Origin: a candidate division WS6 bacterium OLB20
Lineage (GTDB): Bacteria; Patescibacteriota; Dojkabacteria; B142; OLB20
DNA: 43,385 nt
Reading direction: 5' to 3'
NCBI GenBank assembly: GCA_001567355.1
Contig: JYNZ01000007.1
Span: forward strand, 1 to 43,385
Shown: piece after piece, positions 2,811 to 43,385 of the stretch
How the letters are laid out: every line of letters begins with the position of its first letter
Numbering within the stretch: the first letter of the stretch is position 1
Program-made: the position numbers and the translations under genes
Notes under the pieces: generated by a model
What the model was told of the DNA's origin: nothing
Seen by the model: only the letters and a program-made list of their open reading frames with translations
Database searches by the model: none

Positions 2811-3224
2811 TTACTTGCTGTCTGTGTGGTCGTGGTCGTGATTATGATCGTGATCGTGATCGTGGTCATGACTGTGATCGTGGGCCTCCGGTTTCATACC
2901 TGGGACCTGCTCACGCAGCCACATTGCCGCCTTCTGCTGCAGTATTACTGCAGAGATGTAACGCCGGCCGCGATCATTGTCATACTCTTTTTTCAGTTTG
3001 GGATCCAGGATGCCGGCAATCTCTGCCTCCACCTCAGCAGATGTGACCTTGAGGTCATGCTCCTGCGCAATTTTTACAAACAGAAGCTCCTGTGACAATC
3101 GTTCGGTGATCTCCTCGCTCCACTGTTTACGCAGTTCTTCTTCTGAGGTGTTCTGTGACTTGAGAAAGTCCTCAAGCTTGATACCCAGCTCGTCGACACG
3201 CTGCTTGTAGTCATCGATCCGGCC
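2811..3224 (-). CDS. tig: trigger factor, C-terminal segment (downstream reading frame)
   Basis: The frame of ORF 2811..3098 stays open upstream to 3272. It reads RIDDYKQRVDELGIKLEDFLKSQNTSEEELRKQWSEEITERLSQELLFVKIAQEHDLKV..., a typical trigger-factor C-domain. It ends in an HD-rich tail. Confidence 0.8.
   Translation of the reverse strand, partial: GRIDDYKQRVDELGIKLEDFLKSQNTSEEELRKQWSEEITERLSQELLFVKIAQEHDLKVTSAEVEAEIAGILDPKLKKEYDNDRGRRYISAVILQQKAAMWLREQVPGMKPEAHDHSHDHDHDHDHNHDHDHTDSK
2826..2882 (-). repeat. coding (His-Asp)n microsatellite-like tract
   Basis: Encodes HDHSHDHDHDHDHNHDHDH. The plus strand shows gtgatc/gtggtc-type units. Confidence 0.8.
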
Positions 3225-4015
3225 TGTACTTCTGCTTCGATAAGCTTGGCGGGGATGTTGACCTTGGATGCCTTAACTGCCTCGCTCAGCATAGTCTGCA
3301 GGCGCTTGTTCTCCATCATGCGGACCTTGTCAGCCTTAAGCCGTTCGCGCAGCTCATCCTTGAGGTCTTTGACCGACTCAAAGCCGATCTTCATGTCTTT
3401 TACCTGTTCGTCGGTAAGTTCCTTGACCTGTTTATCCAGGTCAGGCTTTTCTTCTTTTTTGGCTTCTTTCTTCTCGGCACTTGTATCTTTTTTGCTATCT
3501 GCTTCATCCGTGTCCTGCTTTTTTTCTTCAGCCTGTCTGATCAGGTCCTTCTGCTGTCTGTCGAGCTCCAGCAGGCGCTTGATCGAGTTGCTGATATCCT
3601 CGTCGGTTACCTCGGCGCTTTCCTCCTTGATTTTGATTTTGGTGAAATCTCCGAGTTTGAAATCAGGGAAGTCTACAAATGAAGCCGAGAACTCAAGTCC
3701 GGCATCATCAGTGACCTTTTTGACAGAATACTGCACCTGGGTGATCGGATTATACTTTTCTTCCTCCATGATCTCTGCAGTGATTGCCGGGATCATGCGG
3801 TTGATTGTTTCTTCATACAGGCGGGTACCCAGTTTTGCCTCGATCAGATTTTCAGGTCCCTTACCTTTTCTGAAACCGGGAAGCGAAACATCCGCAGAAA
3901 GACGTGTAAATGCCTTTGCTTTTTCGTCTGCAAAACGTGCTTTGTCAACGGTAACAGCCAGCTCAATATCGCCGTCCTTTGATTTATTTACTTTGTATGA
4001 ATATCCCTGCGCCAT
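3074..4015 (-). CDS. tig: trigger factor, N-terminal segment (upstream reading frame; the last ~47 codons are out of frame)
   Basis: The N-terminal ribosome-binding domain has the GFRKGK signature (LPGFRKGKGP). The recognisable TF sequence ends at ...IPAKLIEAEVQA and continues in the other frame. Confidence 0.85.
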   Translation of the reverse strand: MAQGYSYKVNKSKDGDIELAVTVDKARFADEKAKAFTRLSADVSLPGFRKGKGPENLIEAKLGTRLYEETINRMIPAITAEIMEEEKYNPITQVQYSVKKVTDDAGLEFSASFVDFPDFKLGDFTKIKIKEESAEVTDEDISNSIKRLLELDRQQKDLIRQAEEKKQDTDEADSKKDTSAEKKEAKKEEKPDLDKQVKELTDEQVKDMKIGFESVKDLKDELRERLKADKVRMMENKRLQTMLSEAVKASKVNIPAKLIEAEVQAGSMTTSSVSTSWVSSLRTFSSHRTPQKKNCVNSGARRSPNDCHRSFCL

Positions 4016-16929: not shown

Positions 16930-17004
16930 TGGTGAGCTGGCCGGGACTCGAACCCGGAACCAATTGCTTAAGAGGCAACTGCTCTACCATTGAGCTACCA
17001 GCCC
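16930..17004 (-). tRNA. tRNA-Lys (anticodon CTT), CCA encoded
   Basis: Hand-folded cloverleaf: GGGCTGG acceptor, GCTC/GAGC D-stem, anticodon loop CTCTTAA, T-arm CCGGG-TTCGAGT-CCCGG. Confidence 0.9.
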
Positions 17005-17102
17005 GCAAAGACAAACATATCGCCTGTACCAGCGATACGCGGGTTTATTATACCAGATGGGCATGAGACTTAAAACCTGCCTGCAACGGCAGAAAGGCAA
17101 TC

Positions 17103-17176
17103 TGCGTCTGGCAGGATTCGAACCTGCGACCCCCAGTTCCGGAAACTGGTGCTCTATCCAACTGAGCTACAGACGC
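17103..17176 (-). tRNA. tRNA-Arg (anticodon CCG), CCA not encoded
   Basis: GCGTCTG acceptor, GCTC/GAGC D-stem, anticodon loop TTCCGGA, T-arm GCAGG-TTCGAAT-CCTGC. Confidence 0.9.
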
Positions 17177-17191
17177 GCCGCGGTAAGAATG

Positions 17192-17265
17192 TACGCCCTG
17201 AGGGATTCGAACCCCCAACCTTCGGTTCCGAAGACCGGCGCTCTATCCAGTTGAGCTAAGGGCGC
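17192..17265 (-). tRNA. tRNA-Arg (anticodon TCG), CCA not encoded
   Basis: GCGCCCT acceptor (G1-U72 wobble), anticodon loop CTTCGGA, T-arm GGGGG-TTCGAAT-CCCTC. There is one mismatch at the top of the anticodon stem. Confidence 0.85.
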
Positions 17266-17378: not shown

Positions 17379-20213
17379 TCAACCGAAGGGGCTTGCTTTG
17401 CCGGTTGCACCAGCTGCGGCGTTTTTCGGATCCATTGGAATGACTCTGTTGATCACCGGCTCCTTTGCTGCATCGACCCTCAGGAAGGCATTGCCCTTTG
17501 GACTCTTGTAAATACTGACCTGGTTTGTCTGCTCAGACGGAAATCTGTAGCCGGGCAGATCCACCGTCAGATGATATTCACCCGGCTCAGGCGAAAAGCC
17601 GTAGCGCCCGGATTCATCGGTCATCTGTACATCAATCTGACGTTCCTCACTGATGCTGAACAGACGGACAAATGCACCGGGTAGCCGGTTGCGTGTCTGC
17701 GAATTATAAACATAGCCCCAGTTGCGCTTATTGGCACCATCGAGCAGCAGAAGCAGTGCAAACTGCAGCACATACAAGACGACAACAAAGAAGTTGAACG
17801 CGACAGGGGAGATGAGTGTTGCAACAATTGAAAATGCGAGACCGCTGTATACAAGAACTGTGTTTATCCTGTGCAGGTTTTTGCGCAGATTGCGTTTAAA
17901 TTCGGCCTTCTTCGCTGCAGCAGTCATGTTGACAGCAATATCCTCAGCGATTGTTCCGTCATCCTCTTCTATCTCCACGCTGCGTTCAACTTTGCCGTAC
18001 TCAGGATGTTCGACTTCCAGCCGGAATGTTCCTTTGTCCGAAGGTAATCCGTATCTGCCCTGCAGGTCGGTAAGTTTCTCCTTAATAAATTCCTTGCCTT
18101 TGTATACGCGGACAGCAGCAAACGGAACAGGTTTTCTGGTCTTTGCGTCATAGACAATTCCCCAGACCTTATACCTCTTGCGATCCCGAACCCATCCTAT
18201 GGCATAAAGCACAAGCCTTGGCAGAGCATACAGATTTGAGAGCAGCGTAGCACCCGTTGCAAGCATCAGCAGAACCGGTGCATAGGTACCGGCAAATGCC
18301 TCAAGTCCCTCGCGTGCAACCGGTGTTGGTGTCGGGATCAGACCGGAGAACACTGACGCAGGGACAACCCCCTGTGCCTCACACAGTGTCGACTCCTCTG
18401 AAGTCAGTTCAACCGTACAGTCCATCTGATAATAAATATCTACTCCCTGAAGAAGATTGGAAAGCTCTATCACGCCCGTGTGCGAAGTTGTTGCTTCTGC
18501 CGAGACAGATTCAAAGCGCAGATTCTCGGGCTCCTGACCATACCGCATCACACAGGTGCCCGGTTCTTTTGTTGTATAGGTAATCAGCACCTGATTATCA
18601 ACATTAAGTGAGTATGGGGGTTCTGACTGGACAATACATGAACCCGTTTCGGGCAGCACAGTAATTATCTCTCCGTCAGTTGCAAATGCTCCCTCATGAA
18701 ATGCCTGCTTACCTGCCGCTGACTGCGCCCTGATTCTGAAGATATAGCGGGTATCCTCCTCAAGAGTGTCAATCGTCATGCAGTGACCGGTAACACGGTA
18801 TTCCTGTCCGGTAGCAGTCGATTTTGTATAAACTGCAGCCTCATACAGGCCATACGAAACTGATCCCTTGGTGGGAATATTGGTATCCCAGCAGACTGTC
18901 ACCGCAGTTGGAGTGTTGTTCGTTACAGTGACGTTCGAGATAGTTACAGGCACCTGGCATGCCAGCTGAAGTGGATCTTCAGAGCAGCTAATAACCGGTG
19001 GCTCAACCACAACAGTAGCAGTGCCGCTTGCTGTCGGTGTAACAGAAACTGAGGTCTCGGGGCTTGGAGTCACTGTCGGACTTGGTCCAACCACAGTAAT
19101 ATCCGCTGTAGTTGCAGTCAGAGCGCCGTTTATTGTATCTGTCACGGTTACTGTATATGTACCCCCTTCAAAGAATACCAGTGAATCAGTAAAGGTACGG
19201 GAGCCGGAATCACCAGATGAGAATGTGTAGTTTGCCGGCAGTGCAGCAGTCGGCGATGTGGATGAAAACGTCACGGTGCCGGCGTACGTCGGATCCTGGG
19301 ACATACTCCCGTCAAGCGCCGTGACCGTCAGCGATATGGGATCCCCTGCATTAACAGATGTAGCACTTGGTGAGATTGAGAGTGATTCAACTGTACTGAC
19401 GATAAAGTCGGGCTGGTTTGATCCGTTATTTCCGTACTCGACCCATGAACCGTTGATACCGTCAGTTACATTCACTACACGTGCCCGCCACTTGTACGAC
19501 ACGCCAGGTGTAAGTCCGGCAATCTGGGCTTCGGAAATAAGTGCAGTCCCTCCGGTATACGCCTGAGGAGGCGCTGTAGAAATGCCGAGAACGCCGGGCT
19601 CATCAGTGACGTCTACTGCTACAACATTTGTACCGGTAAAGACCTGTCCTGTCTCAACAACCTCAAATTCTGCCTGCAATGTTGCCGGATTCCCGGGAGT
19701 TGCGCCGGGGTCTGAAATGTTTACTTTCAGTACGACCTCCTGCTCCTGCGTTCTGCCCCCGACAGGGATTGTTGTCAGTGCATCGGATTTGAACTGTTCA
19801 CGGAATGTCGGTGTTGACGGGATGGTTGCAATATCAGGATACGTTCCGACCTGCCCGACCTGACCGCCACTGCTTGTTCCCTGTGCCACTGAGACAGATC
19901 CGTTAACGTTACATGGTCCAAGTGTTGTCAGGATGGAAATACGTCCTCCACCGCCTCCACCTCCGTCAAATGCTTCATCTCCGCCATCTCCACCCTCTGC
20001 TGAGAGCGTTCCATTAATATCACATGTTTCTCCCTCGATCAGAATACTGCCTCCTGCACCACCTCCTCCACCCGGCGAGGCGATAAGGCCATTGGTCCCA
20101 TCCATCAGAATGTCACCGTTGATAATACGTCCCCGGTTCTGGCCCTGATGCAACCGCACCTCCACCCCGTCCTCCGGCTGCACCGGCACCTGAAGGTCCT
20201 CCGCCCGAACCAA
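17379..20213 (-). CDS. giant protein segment 3: end of Gly-rich module A', Ig/FN3-like domains, C-terminal multi-TM module with two CarboxypepD_reg-like domains
   Basis: In-frame sense begins near 20156 (RLHQGQNRGRIINGDI...). The strings GGGGAGGSILIEG, GGGGGGGRISIL and SYKWRARVVN mirror the N-terminal module. The C-terminus has hydrophobic helices flanking WGIVYDAKTRKP... and WGYVYNSQTRNR... beta-sandwich-like units. Confidence 0.75.
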   Translation of the reverse strand: MVRAEDLQVPVQPEDGVEVRLHQGQNRGRIINGDILMDGTNGLIASPGGGGGAGGSILIEGETCDINGTLSAEGGDGGDEAFDGGGGGGGRISILTTLGPCNVNGSVSVAQGTSSGGQVGQVGTYPDIATIPSTPTFREQFKSDALTTIPVGGRTQEQEVVLKVNISDPGATPGNPATLQAEFEVVETGQVFTGTNVVAVDVTDEPGVLGISTAPPQAYTGGTALISEAQIAGLTPGVSYKWRARVVNVTDGINGSWVEYGNNGSNQPDFIVSTVESLSISPSATSVNAGDPISLTVTALDGSMSQDPTYAGTVTFSSTSPTAALPANYTFSSGDSGSRTFTDSLVFFEGGTYTVTVTDTINGALTATTADITVVGPSPTVTPSPETSVSVTPTASGTATVVVEPPVISCSEDPLQLACQVPVTISNVTVTNNTPTAVTVCWDTNIPTKGSVSYGLYEAAVYTKSTATGQEYRVTGHCMTIDTLEEDTRYIFRIRAQSAAGKQAFHEGAFATDGEIITVLPETGSCIVQSEPPYSLNVDNQVLITYTTKEPGTCVMRYGQEPENLRFESVSAEATTSHTGVIELSNLLQGVDIYYQMDCTVELTSEESTLCEAQGVVPASVFSGLIPTPTPVAREGLEAFAGTYAPVLLMLATGATLLSNLYALPRLVLYAIGWVRDRKRYKVWGIVYDAKTRKPVPFAAVRVYKGKEFIKEKLTDLQGRYGLPSDKGTFRLEVEHPEYGKVERSVEIEEDDGTIAEDIAVNMTAAAKKAEFKRNLRKNLHRINTVLVYSGLAFSIVATLISPVAFNFFVVVLYVLQFALLLLLDGANKRNWGYVYNSQTRNRLPGAFVRLFSISEERQIDVQMTDESGRYGFSPEPGEYHLTVDLPGYRFPSEQTNQVSIYKSPKGNAFLRVDAAKEPVINRVIPMDPKNAAAGATGKASPFG

Positions 20214-23200
20214 GCGTTACCGGTTCGCGCTGACTGCCGTACGCTGTCCCGCCTGATGGTGAAGGATTGCCTCCGTCATTTTCACCGTTGCCTCCATTGC
20301 CTCCATGTGCTCCTCCTGCACCACCGGACTGCCCCGCTCCTGCGGCACCAGTACCCGGTCCCGTGCTTGAAGAAAAGCCTCTGCCGACGCCATCGATAAC
20401 GGCTCCGGAACTGAGGGTGAAGTCTCCTTCGACCTGCAGAATCGATCCGCGATTGGCATTTGTATCAACAGCCGGTCTGATATGAACATTAGTACCGATA
20501 TATACGTTGTGGAAGTTACTGATGCCGGCAGGCAGGTTATCTGCGTAGCCGCCATTTGAATACTGACTGCTGTTAGAAATATACAGGTCACCGTATCCCT
20601 CGTTGTACTCGGATCCGACTTCTACATAGACGGTACCCGGACCTCCCCAGAATGAACCATACTGCCCGCGACCGCCGGCTGCGTTAAACCTGCTGAATGT
20701 CACCAGATCAAGCGGTGCAATACCGTTGTCGCTGTCACCATTGAAATTTGTATGAACAGCTATCCTGCCACCGCTTCCCGCTGTTCCACCATTACCTCCT
20801 GACCCGCCGATGGCAGTGTACGACCCGCTGCCTCCAACGATATCAGCCTCAACAAGAATGCTACCACCTGCACCGGGATCAAGCGCGTTTCCATCCGTAC
20901 CCGAGCCGTTAGCAGCGATAGTACCATTGTTCAGAAGTGTACCTGTTGAACTGCCGTCATCAATGATCAGCCTGATAGCGCCGCCGCCTGACGCAGTGCC
21001 GCCGCCTGATCCAAGATGCAGTGGATAACGGAAATCACCGTAGGGATTGCCGCCGCCTGATGCATACCCGCCGTATACACCGGGACCGTTTGTTGCATAG
21101 CCTGGACCTCTGTCCGCTCCATAACCGAGACCTGATGCCGTTACAAGTCCGCCCGCCTCTACCTCCATACGGTCAAGCCTGAGTGTTACGCCTCTGTCAC
21201 CATCTGAGTAGTCAGTGTCCCCGTCGTTGTATCCTGACAGGGTCAGCACTCCGCTACTCGCGACCCGGAGATCCGAAAACTCATACTCGCCGGTGTTGTT
21301 AGACCAGGTATTGCCGTACAGAACCATTCCTCCCGGAAGGACATCTCCGATAACTATATCCGCATCCTCTGTGCTGTCACCAAGACTGAGAACACCTGCA
21401 ACATTAAGGTCATATCCATTGATATACAGAGGGTCAGGGCCGTTGAGTGTGCCGTAGATCGTTAGGTCAGGATACGAAGCGTCTCCGGTAATCCCGTTAG
21501 AATCCGCGATGTTGACAACCGAGTTCTGTCCGATGACGCTCAGTCTTCCCGCCCGTGTCAGATTAATAGCAGCAAATGTATATTCTCCTTCAGGCAGACC
21601 TGAGGAATGACCGTTGGAATTATTCTGCTGATCAATATATAACAGACCTCCCTGTGACTGATGAACACCTGCCTGTTCGATGTAGATGGAACCGGGACCT
21701 CCCCACCAGGATCCGAAGTTGCCACGACCGCCCACTGCACTGATGTGGCCGCCCAGCGGGTTATAGTCAAATTCTGCAATGGATCTGTTGGTGTCACCAT
21801 TCTCACTGAAGTAAAGAGCGATACGTCCGCCGCCGCCGGGCTGGCTGGCATTGGATGTGCTGCCCCCGGACGCCGAGATTGAGCCGGTACCGCCCAGCAG
21901 GTGCGTGGTTACATAGATTGAACCTCCCGAACCTGCATCTGCTCCGCCTCCGGCTCCGGATGACCGGATCGAACCGTTAACGACGAAATCACCACCCCCG
22001 TTACCATCATCAATTACGAGCCGGATTGCGCCACCACCCGCAAAACCGTCACCACCGCTGCCCAGGTGGACCGGTGCATAGACATCGCCATAGATAGACG
22101 AGAGCGGGGCACCACCTCCCTGACCTCCATATGATCCTGCATTGCCTGATACGTATCCGGGTCCTCTGTCAGGGCTGTAACCCAGCGAGTCTGCTGTAAC
22201 CACTCCTCCGTTTGCGATATACATGTTTTTCAGGAGCAGCGTTAGTCCCCAGTCATTAGTGTAGTTTGTATCACCATTATTATGGCTGATGAGGGTCAGC
22301 GTACCGTTTGAGTTTACTGTCAGGTCACCCAGTTCATATGGAGTGTCCGCATCATGGGCCCAGGTAGAAGCACGCAGTGTGAGACCTCCACGTTCAACAC
22401 CTCCAACAGTCAGGTCCGCGTCACTGTTGATACCAAAATTCATCTCACCGTTGATATCGACATCAACCCCGCTGATTGTTATGCTGTTCGGCGCATTAAA
22501 CGTTCCATCAATCCGCAGATTCGGAAAGCTGGAATCCCCTGTCAGACCGTCAGAATCGGTTATGGTCAGATTAGAGGCCTGTCCAAGCACTATCAACTGA
22601 CCTGCTCTTGTCAGTTTAACGCGCTCAAACTGATAGTTGCCCTGCGGAAGACCTGCAGAATATCCGGATGAATTGTTTTGCTGATCGACATAGAGTAATC
22701 CTCTCTCTGGAGCCGAGAGTCCTATCTGGTCAATATAAATGGTACCCGGACCACCCCACCAGCCGCCAAAATTACCGCGACCGCCCGCTGCCGAAATATT
22801 ACCAAGCGATGGATCAAAATTTGCGGGAGGAATGTTGTTAATCGCGTCTCCGTTTTCCCTGTAATACACAGCGATTCTTCCTCCGCTTCCGGGTCTGGAG
22901 GCGTTTGAAGTACTTCCGCCGTTAGCTGTTATCGAACCAGTGCCGCCTATGGTATCAGCATTTATCCAGATACTGCCCCCCGAGCCTGCAGCCGAGTCTC
23001 CACCGGAACCGTTGGCAGTGATTGACCCGTTATTAATCAGCTGACCGACTTCTCCCGGACCGGTGATATCAAGCCGTATTGCCCCTCCTCCTGCAAATAC
23101 ACTGCCACTGCCCAGAGCATCAGGAGTATAAACACTTCCATAAATTGCTGATGTCGGTGCCCCAAACCCCTGACCTCCATAGGAACCTCCCTGACCGCTG

Positions 23201-24189
23201 ACAAAGCCCGGTCCTCGTGATCCCGGATAGCCAAGTCCGTCTCCGATAACTCTTCCACCTGCATCAACCCTCAAGAGTTCGGCCTGCAGAGTCAATCCCC
23301 AGTCATCGGTATAGAGTGTATTGCCGTTCTGATAGCTGTAAAGGGTCAGCCTGCCCTGGCTGGCTACATGTATTGCGTTAAACTGGTACTGGTTTGTCTG
23401 ATTGTGTGCCCATGTGTTTGCTCGCAGCTTGATACCACCGGTTACAGTATTACCAAGGATAAGATCGGCAGACGTATTGTCCCCGCCAAGATTGATCTCA
23501 CCGTTAATATCGACTTCAACACCATTAATCGTAAATGTTTGCGGAGCGACAAGTGTTCCATATATCAGGAGGTCTGACGCAGAGCTGTCACCGACCAGTG
23601 AATCAGAATTTACAAGGGTGAGAACAGATGATTGTCCCAGCTGAGCAAGCAGTCCTGCGCGGGTCAGCTCTATCCGTTCAAACTGATAGTCGCCCGGGGG
23701 CAGTGATGCATACTGACCGGCTGTATTGTTCTGCTGATCAACATACAATAGACCTTTCTGTGGCTGATGAATGTTTCTCTGTTCGACATACTTTGTACCG
23801 GGGCCTCCCCACCATGATCCGAAATTACCTCTTCCACCAACAGCTACCAGCCTGTTTGCTGTCGGTGTAAAGTCAAAGGCAGGGATACTGTTTCCGGGAT
23901 CCCCGGACTGGTTGTAGTAGACAGCAATTCTGCCGCCACCACCCGGACGGGATGCATTTGAGGTGCTGCCGCCATTTGCAGAGATTGATCCGGTACCGGC
24001 AATAATATCTGTGTCAACCCAGATGCTGCCGCCGGAGCCGGCGTTTGACGATCCTCCTGCACCACTTGACGTGATTGAGCCGTTGATGACAAGCCGTCCT
24101 GTTTCTGAGCCGTTGCGTGTAATCAGTTTTACTGCTCCTCCTCCTGCAAAACCCTGGGCGCCGCTGCCAAGCTCCTGCGCTGATAGACA
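20113..24189 (-). CDS. giant protein segment 2: tandem 351-aa repeats and the start of module A'
   Basis: The track ORF 20113..23748 starts mid-repeat at a TTG. The same frame is open up to 24189 and encodes ...ELGSGAQGFAGGGAVKLI...GGRGNFGSWWGGPGTKYVEQ..., the missing part of the repeat. Confidence 0.75.
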   Translation of the reverse strand, partial: CLSAQELGSGAQGFAGGGAVKLITRNGSETGRLVINGSITSSGAGGSSNAGSGGSIWVDTDIIAGTGSISANGGSTSNASRPGGGGRIAVYYNQSGDPGNSIPAFDFTPTANRLVAVGGRGNFGSWWGGPGTKYVEQRNIHQPQKGLLYVDQQNNTAGQYASLPPGDYQFERIELTRAGLLAQLGQSSVLTLVNSDSLVGDSSASDLLIYGTLVAPQTFTINGVEVDINGEINLGGDNTSADLILGNTVTGGIKLRANTWAHNQTNQYQFNAIHVASQGRLTLYSYQNGNTLYTDDWGLTLQAELLRVDAGGRVIGDGLGYPGSRGPGFVSGQGGSYGGQGFGAPTSAIYGSVYTPDALGSGSVFAGGGAIRLDITGPGEVGQLINNGSITANGSGGDSAAGSGGSIWINADTIGGTGSITANGGSTSNASRPGSGGRIAVYYRENGDAINNIPPANFDPSLGNISAAGGRGNFGGWWGGPGTIYIDQIGLSAPERGLLYVDQQNNSSGYSAGLPQGNYQFERVKLTRAGQLIVLGQASNLTITDSDGLTGDSSFPNLRIDGTFNAPNSITISGVDVDINGEMNFGINSDADLTVGGVERGGLTLRASTWAHDADTPYELGDLTVNSNGTLTLISHNNGDTNYTNDWGLTLLLKNMYIANGGVVTADSLGYSPDRGPGYVSGNAGSYGGQGGGAPLSSIYGDVYAPVHLGSGGDGFAGGGAIRLVIDDGNGGGDFVVNGSIRSSGAGGGADAGSGGSIYVTTHLLGGTGSISASGGSTSNASQPGGGGRIALYFSENGDTNRSIAEFDYNPLGGHISAVGGRGNFGSWWGGPGSIYIEQAGVHQSQGGLLYIDQQNNSNGHSSGLPEGEYTFAAINLTRAGRLSVIGQNSVVNIADSNGITGDASYPDLTIYGTLNGPDPLYINGYDLNVAGVLSLGDSTEDADIVIGDVLPGGMVLYGNTWSNNTGEYEFSDLRVASSGVLTLSGYNDGDTDYSDGDRGVTLRLDRMEVEAGGLVTASGLGYGADRGPGYATNGPGVYGGYASGGGNPYGDFRYPLHLGSGGGTASGGGAIRLIIDDGSSTGTLLNNGTIAANGSGTDGNALDPGAGGSILVEADIVGGSGSYTAIGGSGGNGGTAGSGGRIAVHTNFNGDSDNGIAPLDLVTFSRFNAAGGRGQYGSFWGGPGTVYVEVGSEYNEGYGDLYISNSSQYSNGGYADNLPAGISNFHNVYIGTNVHIRPAVDTNANRGSILQVEGDFTLSSGAVIDGVGRGFSSSTGPGTGAAGAGQSGGAGGAHGGNGGNGENDGGNPSPSGGTAYGSQREPVTLGSGGGPSGAGAAGGRGGGAVASGPEPGTYYQR

Positions 24190-25565
24190 TCACCGTAGGT
24201 ACTTGTGATCCCGCTTGCGAATCCCTGACCGCCGTAAGAACCTCCACCGCCCGAGACAAATCCCTGTCCTCTGTTTGCAGGGTGACCGTAACCGTCAGCG
24301 CTTATCCTGCCTCCTGCGTCAACAGTGATGTCATCCGCAGTCAGTACAAGTCCCCAGTCATCCGTATAGTTTGTATTACCGTTCTGAGCGCTGATCAGTT
24401 CCAGGACTCCCTTTGATGCAACATGAACCGATTCAAACTGATACTGGTAGTTCTGATCATGCGCCCATGTAGACGCGCGCAGGCGAAGCCCCGCATTGAC
24501 ACTGTTTCCAACCGTAACAGATGAATTGGAAGTATCTCCGCCAAGATCAATCTCTCCATTAATATCCACCGTTACTCCGTTAATCTCGAGACCGTCAGGA
24601 GCAATAAACGTTCCATAATTGAGGAGTATCGGCGCAGTAGTGTCACCGGTCAGGCCTGAAGAGTCAGTGATAGTAAGAGTGCTGGCGTTTCCAAGCACCA
24701 TCAGATGTCCCTGCCTTGTTAGCGAGAGCAGTTTAAAGCGGTAGTCACCCTCAAGCAGACCTGCCTGATAACCTGCTGAATTATTCTGCTGATCAACAAA
24801 AAGAGAGCCCTGTGTGGATACGTCCACACCTGTCTGCTCTACATATATGGTTCCGGGGCCGCCCCACCATCCTCCAAAGTTCCCTCGTCCGCCGACTGCA
24901 GCGATTCTGCTGTTTGCCGGGTTGTAATCAAATGCGGTTATGCCTGCCCCGGTATCACCGTTCTGCTCAAAGTAGAGAGCGATTCTGCCTCCACCACCCG
25001 GGCGGAAGGCACCGGAAGTGCTGCCTCCGTTAGCAGCAATTGATCCGGTACCACCAAGCACATCGGTTATCACCCAGATCGAGCCGCCCGAACCTGCATC
25101 TCCTGCTCCTCCTGTGCCGTGTGCCTGGATTGATCCGTTAACATCAACATATCCGTTATCTACAACCAGCTTGATCGAGCCTCCGCCTGCAAATTCGTCA
25201 CCACCGCTGCCAAGGTTGACTGGCTCATAGACACTTCCGTTTATTGTTGTTGTCCCGGCACCAAATGCCCGACCGCCGTAAGATCCGCCCGTTCCGGATC
25301 CGCTGTAACCGGGTCCTCTGTCGGCACGGTATCCGTTACTGTTTGCTGCGATCGCAGCACCTGTATCAATACGGATATTATCTGCCAGAATGGTTACTCC
25401 GAAGTCGTCGGTATAGTTTGTGTTTCCGTTCTCAAACGGACGGACAGTGAGCACTGCCGAATTTGTAACCAGAATGTCGAGACCTCTGCAGTCAAATATT
25501 CCCTGATTATTCGTATCGGCGGTCCAGGTCTGATTCAAATCGATCAGACCATCCGGATCCGGACA
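20586..25565 (-). repeat. about 4.7 tandem copies of a ~1,053-nt (351-aa) coding repeat
   Basis: The DQQNN phase marker sits at 24794, 23739, 22686 and 21633 on the minus strand. Spacings are 1055 (across the frame break), 1053 and 1053 nt. A last degenerate copy ends near 20586. Confidence 0.85.
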
Positions 25566-27584
25566 GCTGCCGAGCGCAGTGACCACTGCCACGGTGTTAG
25601 AATATCCAGCAGCAACACCGTCCAGTACACGGATCTTAATACTGGCTTCGGTATCATAGGAGAGATTATTAATGCTTTTGATGCCGTTATCTGCCGGGCT
25701 GAACGTCACAGATGAGGGTGATAGTGTCCCGCCGAGAGCTGCGTTTGTATCAGCGGGGTCTACCGCGGTGAGAGACGGTGAGCCCGAGTAATCTGTCTTA
25801 ACATTATTGTACTGGTCGTAGGCTGTTACTGTTACCGTATCCATTGAAGCGGAGACCAGAGCAATCTGCGGTGCAGTGATTGTGAAGTAACTGATCGCAT
25901 CCGGTGTTGCCGTAAACGTAAACTCCACCGGACTTCCGGACAGACCCGAACCAGAAGCCCGAACTCTGTTTGTACCTGCGATTCTGCCAAGTGAGTATGT
26001 TCGTGTACTGATTCCGTTCTGATCTGTTGTACTGCTGCCTGATGTCAGGACACCTCCGTTCTGCCCTTGTGTCACAGACCAGGTCACGTTATACCCCGGC
26101 ACCGGAAAGCCGCTGCTGTCGGTGACAAGTACCACCAGCGGATCAGCAAGTGCAGTAAAAACGGTCCCTGTCTGGGAATTACCGCTGACGAGGGAGATAT
26201 TGGCAGCAAGTCCGGCAACAAGAACATCGCGATCTGTTTCAGCATTTCCACCAAATGATGCCCATGTGCTGAACCCGCCTTTGCTGTCACGCACACGAAC
26301 CTGCCAGTGGTACTCGGTACTTCTGGTCATTCCGGTTACCGTAATCCTGCCGCAGTTGCCAGGAGGGGTGAGACATGTCTGGGGATTTGCCTGATTGTTT
26401 GCCTGCGTATGAGTCGGAACATTCGTAAACGGCGTGCCGATTGGCCTGACCTCCAGCTGCAGCGCGAGAGTCTCACCTGCATCGATATCAGACATGTCGG
26501 CAGCAAATACAACCGTGTTTTCGGATGTGGCCTGCCCGACCAGAATCTCCGTTGTATTATTGGACCTGAACTGCTTGAGAATTGTCGGAGTATCAGGTCG
26601 GCACGTTGGTCCAAGCCTGCTGCCTGTACCACCATCCTGCGATGATTCCGTCTGACCGCCTGTGACTGTTGCGGAACCGGTAAAGTCATTATCACTGATA
26701 CAGAACATTCGCAGTCGGCCGCCACCACCGCCGCCACCCTGGTATGTAGCGTTTTCAGCTCCTCCGCCATTTGCCTCGACAGTACCGCCACCGGAGAAAG
26801 TCTGTGCCTCAATCCAGATACTGCCGCCTGCGCCGCCACCTCCGCTGCCGTTTGCACTGGCTGTGCCTGCAAGTCCGTTTGCAGAGATGCGTCCATTGAT
26901 CACGAGATTGCCTGAGACTTCAAGTCTGATTGCTCCACCGCCTGCTCCTCCCGCGCCACCTTCACCCGCGTCGCTGCCTGCAGAACCGAGTGTAAGCGGT
27001 TCCTCAGCATTACCGTAGGGAAGACCGGGAGCACTTGCAGGATTCGTCTGGTCTGCATTACCTTCTCCACCAGCGCCGCCATGCCCTCCTCCTGAACCTC
27101 CGGTCTGTCCGGATGCTGCGTCAGGTGTACCGTTGGCTGCCTCAGACTGGGCATCGGTGTAGCCCATACCGTCAGCATGCAGAACTCCTCCAGGCTCTAT
27201 CGTAAGGTTGCTGACGCGCAGCGTTCCTCCCCAGTCGCCAGAAGTAGATCCGTTTTCGGTCACAAAACTTGAGATGATTACTTCGCCGCCGTTACCGATA
27301 ATGATATCCAGCGTTTCGCAGTTGATGACGCCATCATCCCCGTCGGGTGTGACGACAATCTGTGAGGTAATAACCGCCGGTGCAGCCGGAAGAGGACAAA
27401 CCTGCTCAGCTGCGATTCTCTGAAAGAATCTGAACATGCTTAACAGGGCGAAGAGCGACCCGACAGCAACAAAAGCGATCAGGGTCAGATAAATGAATGT
27501 CTCAAACTGACGCGTGCGCTTTGTCAGTCCGGGCAGACGTTGAATAAGAGGATCCAGCTGTACTTTGAAACGTTTCTGGCTCAT
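24129..27584 (-). CDS. giant protein segment 1: signal-anchor, Gly-rich module A, Big_1/Ig-like domains, first 1.7 repeats
   Basis: ATG at 27584. TM helix FIYLTLIAFVAVGSLFALLSMF. An invasin/intimin-like Ig stretch (SLVSGNSQTGTV...VTDSSGFPVPGYNVTW). The last ~17 codons (QRRSLAAAPRVLQEEEQ) are out of frame. Confidence 0.8.
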   Translation of the reverse strand: MSQKRFKVQLDPLIQRLPGLTKRTRQFETFIYLTLIAFVAVGSLFALLSMFRFFQRIAAEQVCPLPAAPAVITSQIVVTPDGDDGVINCETLDIIIGNGGEVIISSFVTENGSTSGDWGGTLRVSNLTIEPGGVLHADGMGYTDAQSEAANGTPDAASGQTGGSGGGHGGAGGEGNADQTNPASAPGLPYGNAEEPLTLGSAGSDAGEGGAGGAGGGAIRLEVSGNLVINGRISANGLAGTASANGSGGGGAGGSIWIEAQTFSGGGTVEANGGGAENATYQGGGGGGGRLRMFCISDNDFTGSATVTGGQTESSQDGGTGSRLGPTCRPDTPTILKQFRSNNTTEILVGQATSENTVVFAADMSDIDAGETLALQLEVRPIGTPFTNVPTHTQANNQANPQTCLTPPGNCGRITVTGMTRSTEYHWQVRVRDSKGGFSTWASFGGNAETDRDVLVAGLAANISLVSGNSQTGTVFTALADPLVVLVTDSSGFPVPGYNVTWSVTQGQNGGVLTSGSSTTDQNGISTRTYSLGRIAGTNRVRASGSGLSGSPVEFTFTATPDAISYFTITAPQIALVSASMDTVTVTAYDQYNNVKTDYSGSPSLTAVDPADTNAALGGTLSPSSVTFSPADNGIKSINNLSYDTEASIKIRVLDGVAAGYSNTVAVVTALGSCPDPDGLIDLNQTWTADTNNQGIFDCRGLDILVTNSAVLTVRPFENGNTNYTDDFGVTILADNIRIDTGAAIAANSNGYRADRGPGYSGSGTGGSYGGRAFGAGTTTINGSVYEPVNLGSGGDEFAGGGSIKLVVDNGYVDVNGSIQAHGTGGAGDAGSGGSIWVITDVLGGTGSIAANGGSTSGAFRPGGGGRIALYFEQNGDTGAGITAFDYNPANSRIAAVGGRGNFGGWWGGPGTIYVEQTGVDVSTQGSLFVDQQNNSAGYQAGLLEGDYRFKLLSLTRQGHLMVLGNASTLTITDSSGLTGDTTAPILLNYGTFIAPDGLEINGVTVDINGEIDLGGDTSNSSVTVGNSVNAGLRLRASTWAHDQNYQYQFESVHVASKGVLELISAQNGNTNYTDDWGLVLTADDITVDAGGRISADGYGHPANRGQGFVSGGGGSYGGQGFASGITSTYGDVYQRRSLAAAPRVLQEEEQ

Positions 27585-38579: not shown

Positions 38580-39016
38580 TCAACAAACAGCCACACGGTC
38601 GTTCGGGCGGTCCCTACTACATGGTGCCCACCCACTGGAAGGAATGCCCGGGTAATGAGTTCTGCAAGGTACAGGAATATATCGCCAGTATCCTCGAGAG
38701 TCCCTTTGTCTACGAGGAGCAGCCTTCAATTGCAGTATATTCAACACAACGGGATGAATCCGGTCGGGCAAGTTTTGCGAGTCCTCAATATCAGAATATT
38801 CTCAACGAATCACTGCCGGTCATCTTTGACGAGCAGACCTCACTCAGTAATATTGCAGCCGAGGATCCGCTTATCATTATTGACTTCTCAGATGGCAGTA
38901 AGCCCTACACCCTCGCCTCGCTTAAACACGCCACCGGCGTGGAGGCCCTTCCTTCGTCTGTCGCACCAGGCGCAAATCCAGGTAAACATGATATAGTGGT
39001 TATCGTAAATCCATAA
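38537..39016 (+). CDS. LCP family protein, C-terminal segment (downstream frame; LytR_C-like)
   Basis: The frame of ORF 38621..39016 is open from 38537 and reads ...SPDFGGQKEVLINKQPHGRSGGPYYMVPTHWKEC..., continuing the LCP protein. Confidence 0.7.
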   Translation, partial: RRFSPDFGGQKEVLINKQPHGRSGGPYYMVPTHWKECPGNEFCKVQEYIASILESPFVYEEQPSIAVYSTQRDESGRASFASPQYQNILNESLPVIFDEQTSLSNIAAEDPLIIIDFSDGSKPYTLASLKHATGVEALPSSVAPGANPGKHDIVVIVNP

Positions 39017-39038
39017 TCTGTGATATACTAGTTATATT

Positions 39039-39671
39039 ATGGAACGAGTCGTGACAGCTGAACAAATCAGAAAGGAGGCAGTCTATACGATAGCAAAGCG
39101 CTATGATGACGCTGTGCGTATAGGCAGAATCGTAAACCCAAACTTCAATCCACGTATCGAAAGAGGGGCATTATTTGCACGTCTATTCCCTTCTGTAGAG
39201 AATCTTGACTTTTCAGGACGCGAGAACTTTCAAGCAGCAATTATGATTGGAAGTAATAACCCAGAACTTAAGCGCAGCAGTGCAGGTCTTCTTGTAAACA
39301 GTCTATTAAGTCGGGTTCGAGTCAGAGATGAAGATGTCGAGTATACAACTGATCTTCCTTTTAGTATCCACGATGAACTTACCGTACGCTCATATCAATT
39401 CGCACGTGATGGACAGTTCAGAAACCTTCGGGAAATCGGTAGAGTCATGTACGAGGGACGCATACCTAAGGAAGATCGTCCTCGAATGCTGCATCTGCAA
39501 AAAATAGCAGGTGGTCTTATTCAGAGACACTTTGCCGACACTGCGTTGTTACCGTCCGCTTCACTTGAGGACTGGGTCAACAGAATTGAACCATTTGTTG
39601 GCGAGAATCCACATGCCTCGGGCCAGACAACGGCACTGCTCGTCCGTGTACTTAGAGCAGCTGGTGACTGA
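39039..39671 (+). CDS. hypothetical protein, compositionally AT-richer than its neighbours
   Basis: A 210-aa ORF with no recognised motif. My hand count of its first 120 nt gives about 46% GC, against about 56% in the preceding 120 nt. Confidence 0.5.
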   Translation: MERVVTAEQIRKEAVYTIAKRYDDAVRIGRIVNPNFNPRIERGALFARLFPSVENLDFSGRENFQAAIMIGSNNPELKRSSAGLLVNSLLSRVRVRDEDVEYTTDLPFSIHDELTVRSYQFARDGQFRNLREIGRVMYEGRIPKEDRPRMLHLQKIAGGLIQRHFADTALLPSASLEDWVNRIEPFVGENPHASGQTTALLVRVLRAAGD

Positions 39672-40512: not shown

Positions 40513-41688
40513 CTATGATGTGGCAGCATCCCCCACCACAGTGACCTTGCGGGTCATAAACAGCTTCCGGAATACACGTACAGGAAACAGCACGGGCAGA
40601 ATATCAGCAGCCGTCACCGGTTCACCTGCAGCGTTTACCAGCGTCAGGACACCAGGTTTGGCAGTTGTTTTCACAGAGATAGCATCGCTGATGTCATACG
40701 TCTTTAATCGCACAGCACGTTCCAGAAGCTCGGCATCTTCTGATGAAACCGTCAGTACTGCCTTGCGATAGCGCAACATTCTCAAGATACCTTTAAAATC
40801 CTGATTCTTCAGGTACAGCATCACTGCTACCAGCATGACAAAGTTGAAGTAGAATACTGACGGAGCCAGTATGATCATGATGCCGATATGCAGGAGAACG
40901 AGTCCTGCAATGGCAAATGGGCGCAGCGCCTCAAACCACACAGCAAATGGTGCGCCGATTTCAATAATGAGCGACATATAGGTGGTAAATGCGCTGAAAA
41001 TGGTATTGTGCAGGAATCCGGTCTGCGGGAACCTGAACCAGCGGTCAGAAAGAGTTACATAATAAATCGCTGATCCATCAAGCCATGTTCTGTCGTGCAT
41101 CGGCTTCGTTATGCCTGCAAAAAAGTAGATAATGGCTACAACAGCCTGACCCAGACGCTTTGCCCACATCGTTTCCTCCGGCTGCTGCCAGATGCTGGTG
41201 ATATCATTCCGGAACATCCTACGACGCTCAATAAACCAGGGGACGGAAAGTGTTTTTCCAACCGGCGCCAGCATCGCAAAAAACAGCAGCAGCACCATCA
41301 CCTGATCCTGTCCGTTAACAGACCAGGGATTACGGTGCATCATTGATGCAACAAGCATAAACAGGTACAAGGCCATCAGACGCGCCCTGATACCAGCTAT
41401 AAGCAGTACAGATGCAGTCAGGCCGGCAAAGTACAGCAGCCAGACAAACCATTCAGTCTGGATCAGAGTAAACAGGGATGTAGCTGTGCCGATAAATTCA
41501 AAGTTAATAAACTTCAGAGACACTATGCCGTTAGGTCCGTAGTACTTCTGCCACTCCGGAAACGAGATCAGCAGTATCATCAGCACAAACATGCCCAGGG
41601 CAATACGGTACATATCGAGAGCGAAAGGCTTTTCTCTGAAAAACCAGAAGTTATGAAATACTGTGAATACTCTTTTCATGACTGACAC
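40513..41688 (-). CDS. HTTM-domain membrane protein (SdpB / vitamin K-dependent gamma-carboxylase-like)
   Basis: The N-terminal FALDMYRIALGMFVL helix, then 7-8 TMs with the HTTM pattern, plus a ~95-aa soluble C-terminal extension. Confidence 0.7.
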   Translation of the reverse strand: MSVMKRVFTVFHNFWFFREKPFALDMYRIALGMFVLMILLISFPEWQKYYGPNGIVSLKFINFEFIGTATSLFTLIQTEWFVWLLYFAGLTASVLLIAGIRARLMALYLFMLVASMMHRNPWSVNGQDQVMVLLLFFAMLAPVGKTLSVPWFIERRRMFRNDITSIWQQPEETMWAKRLGQAVVAIIYFFAGITKPMHDRTWLDGSAIYYVTLSDRWFRFPQTGFLHNTIFSAFTTYMSLIIEIGAPFAVWFEALRPFAIAGLVLLHIGIMIILAPSVFYFNFVMLVAVMLYLKNQDFKGILRMLRYRKAVLTVSSEDAELLERAVRLKTYDISDAISVKTTAKPGVLTLVNAAGEPVTAADILPVLFPVRVFRKLFMTRKVTVVGDAATS

Positions 41689-42238
41689 GTAACCCTGCGG
41701 GTGTAATATCCATGAACTTTGTCACCATAGAAGATCCCGGCGCAGGGGGCTTGATACTTACACTGTCAAGGCTGAATTCAACCTCCTCCACATTCCGCCC
41801 GTCAGCAGAATGTTGCCTGCAGAGGTAATCACCATACATCTGATAAATCTCATCTCTGGCGTATGAGTTAAGCTGAAACTTTGCTTCTCGATAGTCAAAC
41901 AGGTTACGCTGCAGAAGACTGCGGTCAGTTGTGAGCGGGTTGGGTAGTTCAGAGGTTCCTCCATCTTCATACGTCAGAGTTGTGCGCAGGTACCAGTTCT
42001 GTCTGTCTACCGGAGAAAACATTCTCCACGTTGTTGTCATTCCCAGCAGCCAGCCGGATGTGCTCATTGCCCAGTTAAAATTGCTGATGTGAGTGTTTAT
42101 CTGATGGACAGCCGGCCTTGTCCCGTCATCGGGAACATACGGGACAGAGAACGCAAGTTGAGTGCTCAGTACAATATACAGCACATAAACTATGCACAGG
42201 TAGGCAGCTGCTGTTTTGAGGAACGGTATTCTCTTCAT
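41651..42238 (-). CDS. membrane-anchored HTTM-partner protein (SdpA/DUF5819-like?)
   Basis: An N-terminal TM and a W.MFSP motif (TWRMFSPVDRQNWY). It overlaps the HTTM gene start by 38 nt. The family call is from memory and needs an HMM check. Confidence 0.4.
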   Translation of the reverse strand: MKRIPFLKTAAAYLCIVYVLYIVLSTQLAFSVPYVPDDGTRPAVHQINTHISNFNWAMSTSGWLLGMTTTWRMFSPVDRQNWYLRTTLTYEDGGTSELPNPLTTDRSLLQRNLFDYREAKFQLNSYARDEIYQMYGDYLCRQHSADGRNVEEVEFSLDSVSIKPPAPGSSMVTKFMDITPAGLRVSHEKSIHSIS

Positions 42239-42258
42239 TCGGGTAGACCTGGACAGCC

Positions 42259-43385
42259 TCAGACAGGATCGTCAATTGACCTGCTTATCTTATCCTGGAA
42301 CGAGTCAAGGTCAGGATCATTTCGCTTCTGCCATCTCTGTCCAGCTGTATTAAGCAGTTCACCGATCCTGTAGTGAACACCAAATACGTACATCGCAAAG
42401 CCCATCAGTACAAGCGATACTGCGATCAGAATGCGGTCAGCCTCCTCAGAGATCAGAGCTGTACAGGGCAACAGTCCGGGTGTGTATGTAATTGAGTCAC
42501 GTCCGCGTTCAATTGATCCTTCGGTAATTACAACAGTGTTGGACAGAGCTGTATCAACAAGTGCGTCATCCAGTGCAACCTGATATGTCAGGGTCAGTGT
42601 TGACTGTGCTGTCAGGGTAAGTGATGACCATGTTATTACATTCCCGCTAACCGAACCCCCGTTTGTAATACTTGTCTGAACCACATCGTCTGCACTGACT
42701 CTGCTGTCCAGAGTATCTGTGACGGTAAATGTTCTGGACTCACTGTCAGGATTGGTAATGACAAGCGTAAACACTGCAATCTGTGCGGCAGGTGTATTTG
42801 CATCACTGCAGATGGTCGCAGCAGACTTTTCGATCATTATCTGATCAACAGGTGTGCACTGATCTGCCTCGCACAGATCTGGATCATCAACGCACTGATC
42901 AAGTATACAGACCGGACCGGAACTGCCATCCTGACAGGTATGACCTACCGGGCACGCATTGTTACCCTCATCAGGATCGCAGGGCTCTCCGCAGTCAGGT
43001 ACAGGAGTACAACCGTCAGAGTAACAGCTGGCAGGTGAGGTTACGCACTGATTCAGCTCGCAGATACCCTCTCCGTCGTTGTTTTCATCAACACAGGTGT
43101 GGTTGTTGATACATGCATCAGTACCTTCTGACGTATCGCAGGTGCTTCCGCACGCTGCAGGTTCATACTCCACCGGGCAGGAGCCTCCGGGATAAAACGG
43201 TGCGCAAGCCTGACCGGATGCACTGATCTCAAAGTATCCTGTCGGACAGCTGGAACTTGTAACAGTAATCTGCTCACATGCATCACCGTCTGAAGGGTCA
43301 GATGTACATCGTGTACATATAGTTGAGACCCCGGGCGGCGGCGGAGCCGGAGCAGGTGCAGGTGCTGGTGCCGGCGCAGGGGCTG
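42259..43385 (-). CDS. Cys-rich, DUF11-like, C-terminally anchored surface protein (5' end beyond the window)
   Basis: The frame stays open to the window edge: my translation upstream of 43173 gives a ...PAPAPAPAPAPPPP linker and more Cys-rich sequence. It has two ~52-aa 8-Cys modules, a DUF11-type repeat (TFTVTDTL...VITW...LTLTYQV), LPCTA, one TM and a charged tail. Confidence 0.65.
   Translation of the reverse strand, partial: APAPAPAPAPAPAPPPPGVSTICTRCTSDPSDGDACEQITVTSSSCPTGYFEISASGQACAPFYPGGSCPVEYEPAACGSTCDTSEGTDACINNHTCVDENNDGEGICELNQCVTSPASCYSDGCTPVPDCGEPCDPDEGNNACPVGHTCQDGSSGPVCILDQCVDDPDLCEADQCTPVDQIMIEKSAATICSDANTPAAQIAVFTLVITNPDSESRTFTVTDTLDSRVSADDVVQTSITNGGSVSGNVITWSSLTLTAQSTLTLTYQVALDDALVDTALSNTVVITEGSIERGRDSITYTPGLLPCTALISEEADRILIAVSLVLMGFAMYVFGVHYRIGELLNTAGQRWQKRNDPDLDSFQDKISRSIDDPV

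Follow-up and report, generated by a model that had tools for sequence, protein, structure and literature searches.

Homologues of the vitamin K-dependent carboxylase GGCX are widespread in bacteria, and we know of none with a defined protein substrate. To our knowledge, functional handles on the bacterial homologues are limited to SdpAB and to MloH, which acts on a small molecule. Here, we describe a pair of genes on contig JYNZ01000007.1 of the candidate division WS6 bacterium OLB20, which encode a 391 amino acid (aa) polytopic membrane protein, assigned below to the HTTM/GGCX superfamily, and a 195-aa partner protein, and we compare this pair with the closest described systems. The whole 43,385-nucleotide (nt) stretch that was analyzed is referred to as the window, and its coordinates are window positions.

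In Bacillus subtilis, maturation of SdpC to the SDP toxin depends on both SdpA and SdpB (PMC6818787). The SdpAB module acts on an exported protein, and as in YitP-YitO and in the window a small partner gene precedes the gene for a polytopic protein of the HTTM family. A second module of this type, the DUF5819/HTTM-DCC1 pair, was modelled by AlphaFold3 as a split GGCX-like complex that resembles whole GGCX (bioRxiv 10.64898/2026.08.19.745780). In this model the DUF5819 helix replaces a transmembrane (TM) helix of GGCX and the DUF5819 domain lies on one side of the clamp, Leu59 and Phe60 of DUF5819 touch the vitamin K pocket, and Lys189, Trp195 and Phe273 are conserved; the same study points to MloH as a fused HTTM and DUF5819-like version (bioRxiv 10.64898/2026.08.19.745780). 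MloH, a bacterial HTTM enzyme, is the carboxylase of the vitamin K-dependent type in malonomycin biosynthesis (Law et al. 2018, as cited in the same preprint), and shows that carboxylation by the family is not confined to Glu residues of proteins. The HTTM and DUF5819-like regions of MloH are fused and its gene belongs to a polyketide synthase-nonribosomal peptide synthetase cluster, whereas the window pair is split and lies among housekeeping genes.

Human GGCX has 758 aa in one chain, which includes the lumenal clamp that binds the propeptide. Its Lys218 is the catalytic base, which hydrogen-bonds the hydroquinone, and the exchange K218A abolishes catalysis, while the substrate Glu is held by N159 and H160 together with Tyr395 and Arg436 from the linker/clamp (bioRxiv 10.1101/2025.02.09.637231). 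The type of module is already known from SdpAB and DUF5819-HTTM. New in the locus described here are a partner family without a domain model, a divergent HTTM clade whose window member has neither the Glu pocket nor a DCC domain, and large anchored Cys-rich neighbours.

Results

Partner and HTTM genes form a conserved two-gene unit

The partner gene was located directly upstream of the HTTM gene in 12 of 12 distinct related loci. The survey covered L001, L002/L005, L003, L004 (a Planctomycetota metagenome-assembled genome), L006, L007, L008 (with two tandem pairs), L009, L018, L019 and L020; a locus search with the partner alignment A3 gave one genome locus and two metagenome loci. At the related loci the partner stop and the HTTM start usually overlap by 4-25 nt. 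The same arrangement was seen at L021, the locus of the distant HTTM protein P0004, where a 187-aa single-TM protein with a VFAVFAPN motif is encoded upstream.

The gene upstream of the pair differs between loci. Four of them (L001, L006, L007 and L020) have none, or one on the opposite strand. Directly upstream of the partner gene, L008 (7109-8056) and L009 (236-1180), both from one sample, encode a DUF6065 (PF19541) protein of ~315 aa that overlaps the partner gene, looks cytoplasmic and is devoid of a signal peptide or TM segment. In L005 (6417-7976), L018 (3-1445) and L002 (2-280) this position is occupied by an anchored cupredoxin/18-Cys protein with a 4-nt overlap. Neither the Cys-rich protein encoded upstream of the window pair nor the 4-TM protein encoded downstream of it has a homologue at any related locus. 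Since the pair is constant and the upstream gene variable, the two-gene partner-HTTM pair is the conserved unit. A first-pass annotation of the window had suggested that the pair may be a modification or maturation system for the Cys-rich protein and had tied this idea to conservation of the Cys-rich gene next to the pair; with no homologue at any of the loci, the idea does not stand by this measure.

Some related loci show further peculiarities. Both HTTM genes of the tandem pairs in L008 (7986-11169) look frameshift-split, on a long-read contig. In L019 (636-3713) the HTTM domain is fused to a polytopic C-terminal region of >700 aa without a Pfam match, and in L020 (845-2684) a second HTTM paralogue follows directly downstream of the pair, 4 nt apart. 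Large polytopic membrane proteins are encoded downstream of the HTTM gene in L021 (1834-3006, weak DUF6044 match) and L009 (3233-4648, PMT-family glycosyltransferase). Upstream of the partner gene of L001, an open reading frame (ORF) of (CGGPGG)n repeats runs on the opposite strand at the contig end (2-226, minus).

The 391-aa protein is a divergent member of the HTTM/GGCX superfamily

Among 5.8 billion proteins searched, four word-sharing homologues of the 391-aa protein were found (P0001-P0004, E 7e-72 to 1e-11), and all four carry PF05090 (HTTM). The direct Pfam matches of the window protein itself are both sub-threshold, LMF1 with 2.6e-4 and 21.6 bits (cut-off 27) and DoxX with 6.8e-4 and 20.6 bits (cut-off 23.6); PF05090, LMF1 and DoxX are members of the same Pfam clan. 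Profile A4, which comprises the window protein and seven relatives, matches human GGCX among the PDB sequences with E=2.5e-13 over 233 profile positions. In a Foldseek search of the PDB with the model of the HTTM protein, the top 16 matches were all GGCX (E 1e-5 to 4.5e-4, query TM-score 0.46) and the next match had E=0.27, which makes GGCX the best and sole structural match. By BLASTP, the window protein is directly similar to annotated DUF5819-linked HTTM proteins (1e-11 to 1e-22), with which it shares a conserved Lys/Trp/Phe triad. Since the NCBIfam scan of the 391-aa protein returned no match at E<=0.1, the SdpB model TIGR04033 included, the protein is not SdpB; P0001 likewise does not match TIGR04033. 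In contrast to the window clade, the DUF5819-linked HTTM proteins do match this model at 1e-12 to 1e-22, although below its cut-off.

In HMMER alignments, Lys195, Trp202 and Gly205 of the window protein correspond to Lys218, Trp223 and Gly226 of GGCX, and Lys195 is invariant in the alignments A4 and A7. The substrate side is different. The GGCX stretch W157-N158-N159-H160-S161 aligns with V124-N125-G126-Q127-D128 of the family motif HRNPWSVNGQDQ, and N158 alone is retained; within this motif the window clade has an invariant Gly and an invariant Asp (Asp128). The region of GGCX that contains Y395 and R436 is absent from the window chain. PF05090 in the relatives, the match of A4 to GGCX, the presence of Lys195 and the Foldseek result place the 391-aa protein in the HTTM/GGCX superfamily; on these comparisons it is a member of the superfamily, and we do not file it as a Glu carboxylase.

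The two closest homologues, P0001 and P0002, also contain a C-terminal DCC1-like (PF04134) domain, and a DCC1-like domain with a CxxC motif is found at the HTTM C-terminus in P0001, P0002, L005 and L018. A degenerate DCC1-like domain in the tail of the window protein was considered and rejected, as the 391-aa protein has no Cys at all and the tail gave negative scores against a custom DCC hidden Markov model (HMM). No DCC gene was found anywhere in the window.

The partner represents a family new to current domain libraries

A word-indexed search with the partner found only the partner itself, and an exhaustive HMMER search was needed to recover the family. It comprises 160 representative clusters at E<=1e-3 and 54 at E<=1e-10 (clusters at 50% identity). 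No Pfam or NCBIfam model describes this family, which is thus new to current domain libraries; the lone match in a scan of 71 members was a cyclophilin fusion in one of them. The partner had no tblastn match in plasmids. Its signature reads GLxNxWxMFSPxxRxNW…DFREAKF…YLCR, and the family consensus runs from an N-terminal hydrophobic helix through GLxNxWxMFSPxxRxNW, a DG turn, LPLPxQxxRxF and DFREAKFxLNxY to YLCR.

The partner consists of an N-terminal TM helix and an alpha/beta domain of ~165 aa. An AlphaFold2 (AF2) model from 71 sequences, with a predicted local distance difference test (pLDDT) score of 84, shows the TM helix and another long helix, a beta-hairpin, a pair of helices and two more strands. 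Two Cys are present, one of them inside the TM helix. Because of the basic N-terminus MKR, an N-in/C-out topology is predicted with the domain facing outward, and the same orientation is given by relatives that carry a signal peptide, a cyclophilin domain and an extra TM segment in front of the family helix. One of these, P0032 (494 aa), combines a signal peptide, a cyclophilin peptidyl-prolyl isomerase (PPIase) domain (PF00160, 3e-31) and an extra TM segment with the partner domain, and its architecture hints at work on exported proteins. P0022 and P0062 possess N-terminal extensions.

With regard to the first-pass annotation, which saw in the locus a mirror of sdpA-sdpB with an SdpA-like partner, the order of partner and HTTM gene has been borne out at the related loci, whereas no match to SdpA, SdpB or DUF5819 was obtained even at E<=0.1-10. 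The SdpA model (TIGR04034 / Pfam SdpA) was matched neither by four partner-family members at E<=10 nor by 71 members at E<=0.01, so that the designation SdpA-like fits the position of the gene and has no HMM support. The partner also did not match DUF5819 (PF19136), while genuine DUF5819 proteins from L010 and L011 reached 1e-26 in the same scan.

DUF5819 cassettes resemble the window pair in gene order and architecture

A tblastn search of plasmids with P0001 retrieved cassettes of DUF5819 followed by HTTM, with a fused or adjacent DCC1-like/DUF393 domain, in Bacillus, Virgibacillus and Streptomyces. In Ralstonia, a hypothetical 190-aa protein holds the DUF5819 position and scores weakly against the profiles of both families (11.5 and 8.0 bits). 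The DUF5819-HTTM(-DCC1) cassettes of Bacillota and Actinomycetota show the same gene order and tight coupling as the window pair, with a single-TM protein of ~200 aa encoded ahead of HTTM. Like the partner, DUF5819 proteins have an N-terminal TM helix, an outer domain of ~160 aa and a central W-x-[LM]-F-[AS]-P motif, with QNWxLFAPxP where the partner family has WRMFSPxxRxNW. When the partner (A2) was compared with DUF5819 (A6) by hhalign, the TM helices of the two aligned in register and so did their W-x-[LM]-F-[AS]-P motifs, at a probability of 5.8% and E=0.0066. Leu59/Phe60 of DUF5819 may be the counterpart of the partner WRMFSP motif.

Unlike DUF5819, the partner family has extra motifs of its own (DFREAKFxLNxY and YLCR) and does not match PF19136. 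The DCC1-like fusion of the cassettes is shared by P0001, P0002 and L018 but not by the window HTTM protein. A further difference concerns the upstream gene, which encodes a large anchored protein in the window and a secreted peptide of ~100 aa in the Bacillota cassettes. Such signal-peptide proteins, with amphipathic segments rich in Gly/Ala/Trp, accompany DUF5819-HTTM-DCC on Bacillota plasmids in L010 (2003-2861), L011 (2781-3116), L013 (1764-2066), L016 (520-852) and L017 (1434-1745 and 4010-4330); they are duplicated in L010 and L017, and are preceded by an S8 peptidase in L011 and L013. They resemble toxin or bacteriocin precursors.

Organization of the window locus

The three minus-strand ORFs for the Cys-rich protein, the partner and the HTTM protein, together with features of their products, are listed in Table 1. 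The coordinates given in the first-pass annotation were confirmed, with a 20-nt gap between the Cys-rich and the partner gene, a 38-nt overlap between the partner and the HTTM gene and a 4-TM gene further downstream, and so were the W.MFSP motif of the partner and the quoted Cys-rich and acidic strings. The HTTM ORF starts with GTG and has an in-frame ATG 9 nt downstream. Since homologues exist elsewhere, the partner and the polytopic protein are encoded by real genes and not by chance ORFs. Inside the gene cluster no promoter-like or terminator-like signal exceeded the shuffled background, which makes co-transcription plausible.

Table 1 Features of the partner-HTTM locus in the window
Feature	Position	Strand	Remarks
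3-4-TM protein, 156 aa	39911..40381	-	131 nt downstream of HTTM gene
HTTM/GGCX-superfamily protein (putative catalytic subunit), 391 aa	40513..41688	-	Assigned by relatives, profile and Foldseek
C-terminal ~72-aa tail of HTTM protein	40516..40731	-	Position of DCC1-like CxxC domain in closest relatives (alignment)
KPMHDRTWLDG, HTTM residues 195-205	41074..41106	-	Invariant Lys195, Trp202, Gly205 (alignments)
HRNPWSVNGQDQ, HTTM residues 118-129, family motif	41302..41337	-	Aligns with GGCX W157-N158-N159-H160-S161
Partner (putative accessory subunit), 195 aa	41651..42238	-	160-cluster family; directly upstream of HTTM gene
WRMFSP signature, partner residues 71-76	42011..42028	-	Best-conserved family motif; colinear with QNWxLFAPxP of DUF5819
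Partner TM helix, residues 4-32	42143..42229	-	After basic N-terminus MKR
Cys-rich anchored protein gene, 3' part only	42259..43385	-	Open from window end (43383) to stop at 42259, 374 codons
TM anchor of Cys-rich protein, residues 318-336	42376..42432	-	Followed by 38-aa cytoplasmic tail; type-I anchored
Two tandem ~52-aa eight-Cys modules, residues 78-130 and 131-181	42841..43152	-	Self-alignment, eight Cys in register

The 156-aa membrane ORF is followed by tRNA-Pro after 102 nt, and its product has no Pfam or NCBIfam match. As a component of the system the 4-TM protein was rejected, with a homologue at 0 related loci, and it is doubtful that it belongs to the system. The surrounding genes have housekeeping and cell-surface functions and include those for an LCP transferase, G6PD, 6-phosphogluconolactonase, thioredoxin reductase, trigger factor, RecF and three very large proteins of the Ig/fn3 type. 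The latter correspond to three consecutive minus-strand ORFs of 944, 1211 and 1151 aa (17379-27584) with fn3, CarboxypepD_reg and Big_1 domains, whose products are probably surface proteins; the 1211-aa ORF has no Pfam match and no Cys and overlaps the 944-aa ORF by ~100 nt. The trigger factor homologue (3074-4015) has just 313 aa, with an N-terminal domain, a weak C-terminal match and no detected PPIase domain. Between the LCP gene and tRNA-Pro (38621-39671), the plus strand contains ORFs of 131 and 210 aa, of which the 210-aa ORF has no Pfam or NCBIfam match, and a minus-strand cluster at 16930-17265 contains three tRNAs (Lys-CTT, Arg-CCG and Arg-TCG).

Cys-rich proteins are encoded upstream of the pair in two lineages

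The available part of the Cys-rich protein has 374 residues, of which 24 are Cys (6.4%), an exceptional content in the window, where the mean is 0.85%. Residues 1-185 of this part comprise 22 Cys and 30 Asp+Glu, and a single Lys+Arg. An (Ala-Pro)n linker is followed by an irregular Cys region, the two modules, a beta-rich region of ~95 aa, the TM anchor and the 38-aa tail. Residues ~193-288 gave sub-threshold matches to DUF11 (PF01345; 21.5 versus 24.6 bits), a GBS104-like Ig model (21.0 versus 26) and TIGR04226 (18.5 versus 30). No relatives of the protein were found in plasmids by tblastn, and PDB sequences matched its Ala-Pro linker alone.

The cupredoxin/18-Cys protein of L005, L002 and L018 has 480-519 aa and is anchored at its N-terminus. 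It contains a cupredoxin domain (PF13473) as well as an 18-Cys domain and is not homologous to the window Cys-rich protein. The copies of L005 and L018 are 52% identical, compared to 55-57% for the partners and HTTM proteins of the two loci. Anchored Cys-rich neighbours of the pair recur in two lineages without being homologous to each other, and the cupredoxin/18-Cys protein is a second, unrelated candidate client.

Discussion

Homology to GGCX, the conserved Lys, Trp and Gly residues, the strict pairing of the two genes and the outward topology of the partner constitute the established part of our analysis. We consider it probable that the pair forms a two-subunit, quinol-dependent, GGCX-like modifying enzyme that acts outside the membrane. 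In such an enzyme, catalysis within the membrane would fall to the HTTM protein, which keeps the lysine equivalent to the hydroquinone-deprotonating Lys of GGCX. The partner would be an obligatory accessory subunit that associates with it, contributing one extra TM helix to complete the bundle, and its extracytoplasmic domain would cap the outward active site with the WRMFSP loop directed toward the quinone pocket and with the DFREAKF helix. By adding a helix and a cap, the partner is proposed to fill the role of the last TM helix and the lumenal 'clamp' of GGCX, as do DUF5819 and SdpA elsewhere. For the GGCX clamp, the window either has no counterpart or has one in the separate 195-aa protein, which is unrelated in sequence.

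In the proposed mechanism the complex would most likely bind a membrane quinol (menaquinol), and Lys195 would start quinol oxygenation. The strong base formed in this way would deprotonate a substrate at the outer membrane face, which would then be carboxylated or receive another carbanion-type modification. The fused DCC1 domain of the relatives follows an even number of TM helices and is, by comparison with GGCX, probably cytoplasmic. It would fit recycling of the oxidized quinone, like animal VKOR, whereas the window protein would need another route.

However, several observations weigh against a quinol-dependent GGCX-like enzyme. In the hmmscan against Pfam (E<=0.1) the 391-aa protein did not match PF05090, so that the label of an HTTM-domain protein in the first-pass annotation holds at the level of the superfamily, through relatives, profile and Foldseek, and not as a direct Pfam hit. 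The AF2 model of this protein, from a 5-sequence alignment, is of low confidence (pLDDT 52.5). Of the Glu pocket, N159 and H160 are exchanged for Gly126 and Gln127 and W157 is not kept either; due to the loss of N159/H160 we argue that the reaction is not a classical Glu gamma-carboxylation. The partner and 71 family members have no informative Pfam or NCBIfam model, the partner profile did not match any PDB sequence, GGCX included, and Foldseek found no fold match for the partner model in the PDB (best E=0.13, TM-score 0.18, GGCX unmatched). The link between partner and DUF5819 is weak, with 5.8% in hhalign and HMM scores <=5.5 bits. Furthermore, nothing points to quinone production by the organism, and the candidate substrate is not conserved beside the pair.

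The last point bears most directly on the idea that the pair is a dedicated maturation system for the adjacent Cys/Asp/Glu-rich anchored protein, in which acidic residues would be carboxylated for Ca2+ binding or the Cys modules modified. The neighbouring gene lies on the same strand after a 20-nt gap with no internal promoter or terminator signal above background, its product has an extremely acidic ectodomain (30 D+E versus 1 K+R in 185 aa), the catalytic Lys is conserved in the HTTM protein, and on three contigs of another lineage the same upstream slot, with translational coupling, is taken by an anchored 18-Cys protein that is not homologous. Against this, none of the other pairs is flanked by a homologue of the gene, a co-directional gene upstream is lacking at four loci and is the cytoplasmic-looking DUF6065 gene at two, the Glu-pocket residues N159/H160 are replaced, and the 3' fragment of the gene contains no identified propeptide-like recognition element; a dedicated system is thus unlikely. 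With spacing and shared strand as the only ties between the Cys-rich gene and the pair, the Cys-rich neighbour is at best a tentative choice as the leading candidate substrate in this genome, and we would rather not expect it to be the right one. A broader version, in which the pair is a quinol-driven modifier whose clients are large Cys-/acid-rich anchored surface proteins (of the DUF11 type here, cupredoxin/18-Cys in L005/L018) and introduces a carboxylation or another carbanion-derived change, appears quite improbable to us.

The Cys content of the neighbours in two lineages would also suit a factor that assists the folding of exported Cys-rich proteins by thiol-disulfide or redox chemistry, linked to quinone and akin to DsbB/VKOR or to the proposed redox roles of LMF1/DoxX. 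In the closest homologues, HTTM is fused to a DCC1-like thiol-disulfide oxidoreductase domain with CxxC, one member of the partner family is a cyclophilin fusion, and the sole direct Pfam matches of the window protein are the sub-threshold ones to LMF1 and DoxX. Yet the window HTTM protein contains no Cys and has lost the CxxC domain from its tail, one of the two Cys of the partner lies in its TM helix, and the probably cytoplasmic DCC domain of the relatives suits quinone recycling better than oxidation of exported thiols, so that we give a redox function very little weight. Still further from the data is maturation of a small secreted peptide as in SdpABC, with the downstream 4-TM protein as immunity protein, which we regard as a far-fetched explanation. 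The requirement of SdpA and SdpB for SDP toxin formation and the ~100-aa Gly/Ala/Trp-rich signal-peptide proteins ahead of the Bacillota plasmid cassettes, sometimes with an S8 protease, are in line with it. However, the window proteins match neither TIGR04033 nor TIGR04034, whereas DUF5819-linked HTTM proteins match SdpB, and no SdpC-like precursor, SdpRI-like genes or convincing small secreted-peptide ORF was found in or beside the cluster. In addition, conservation of the pair does not extend to the 4-TM protein, the genomic context consists of housekeeping genes, and the candidate substrate of the window is upstream and large, unlike in SdpABC.

The statement of the first-pass annotation that no function is established for bacterial HTTM operons is essentially right, with the qualification that the module has already been modelled as a split GGCX-like complex (bioRxiv 10.64898/2026.08.19.745780). 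The partner family extends the idea of a 'split GGCX' beyond DUF5819, and an HTTM clade with the catalytic Lys but without the Glu pocket points to a different chemistry or a different substrate. Candidate substrates are encoded next door in two lineages and are experimentally tractable. Should the link to them fail, the pair would be one more member of an uncharacterized, though recognized, type of module; if it is true, the function of a bacterial HTTM protein becomes directly testable. With Cys-/acid-rich surface proteins as clients, a bacterial GGCX homologue would for the first time be assigned a substrate and a modification at the protein level, and the enzyme responsible would be a split one with a new accessory family.

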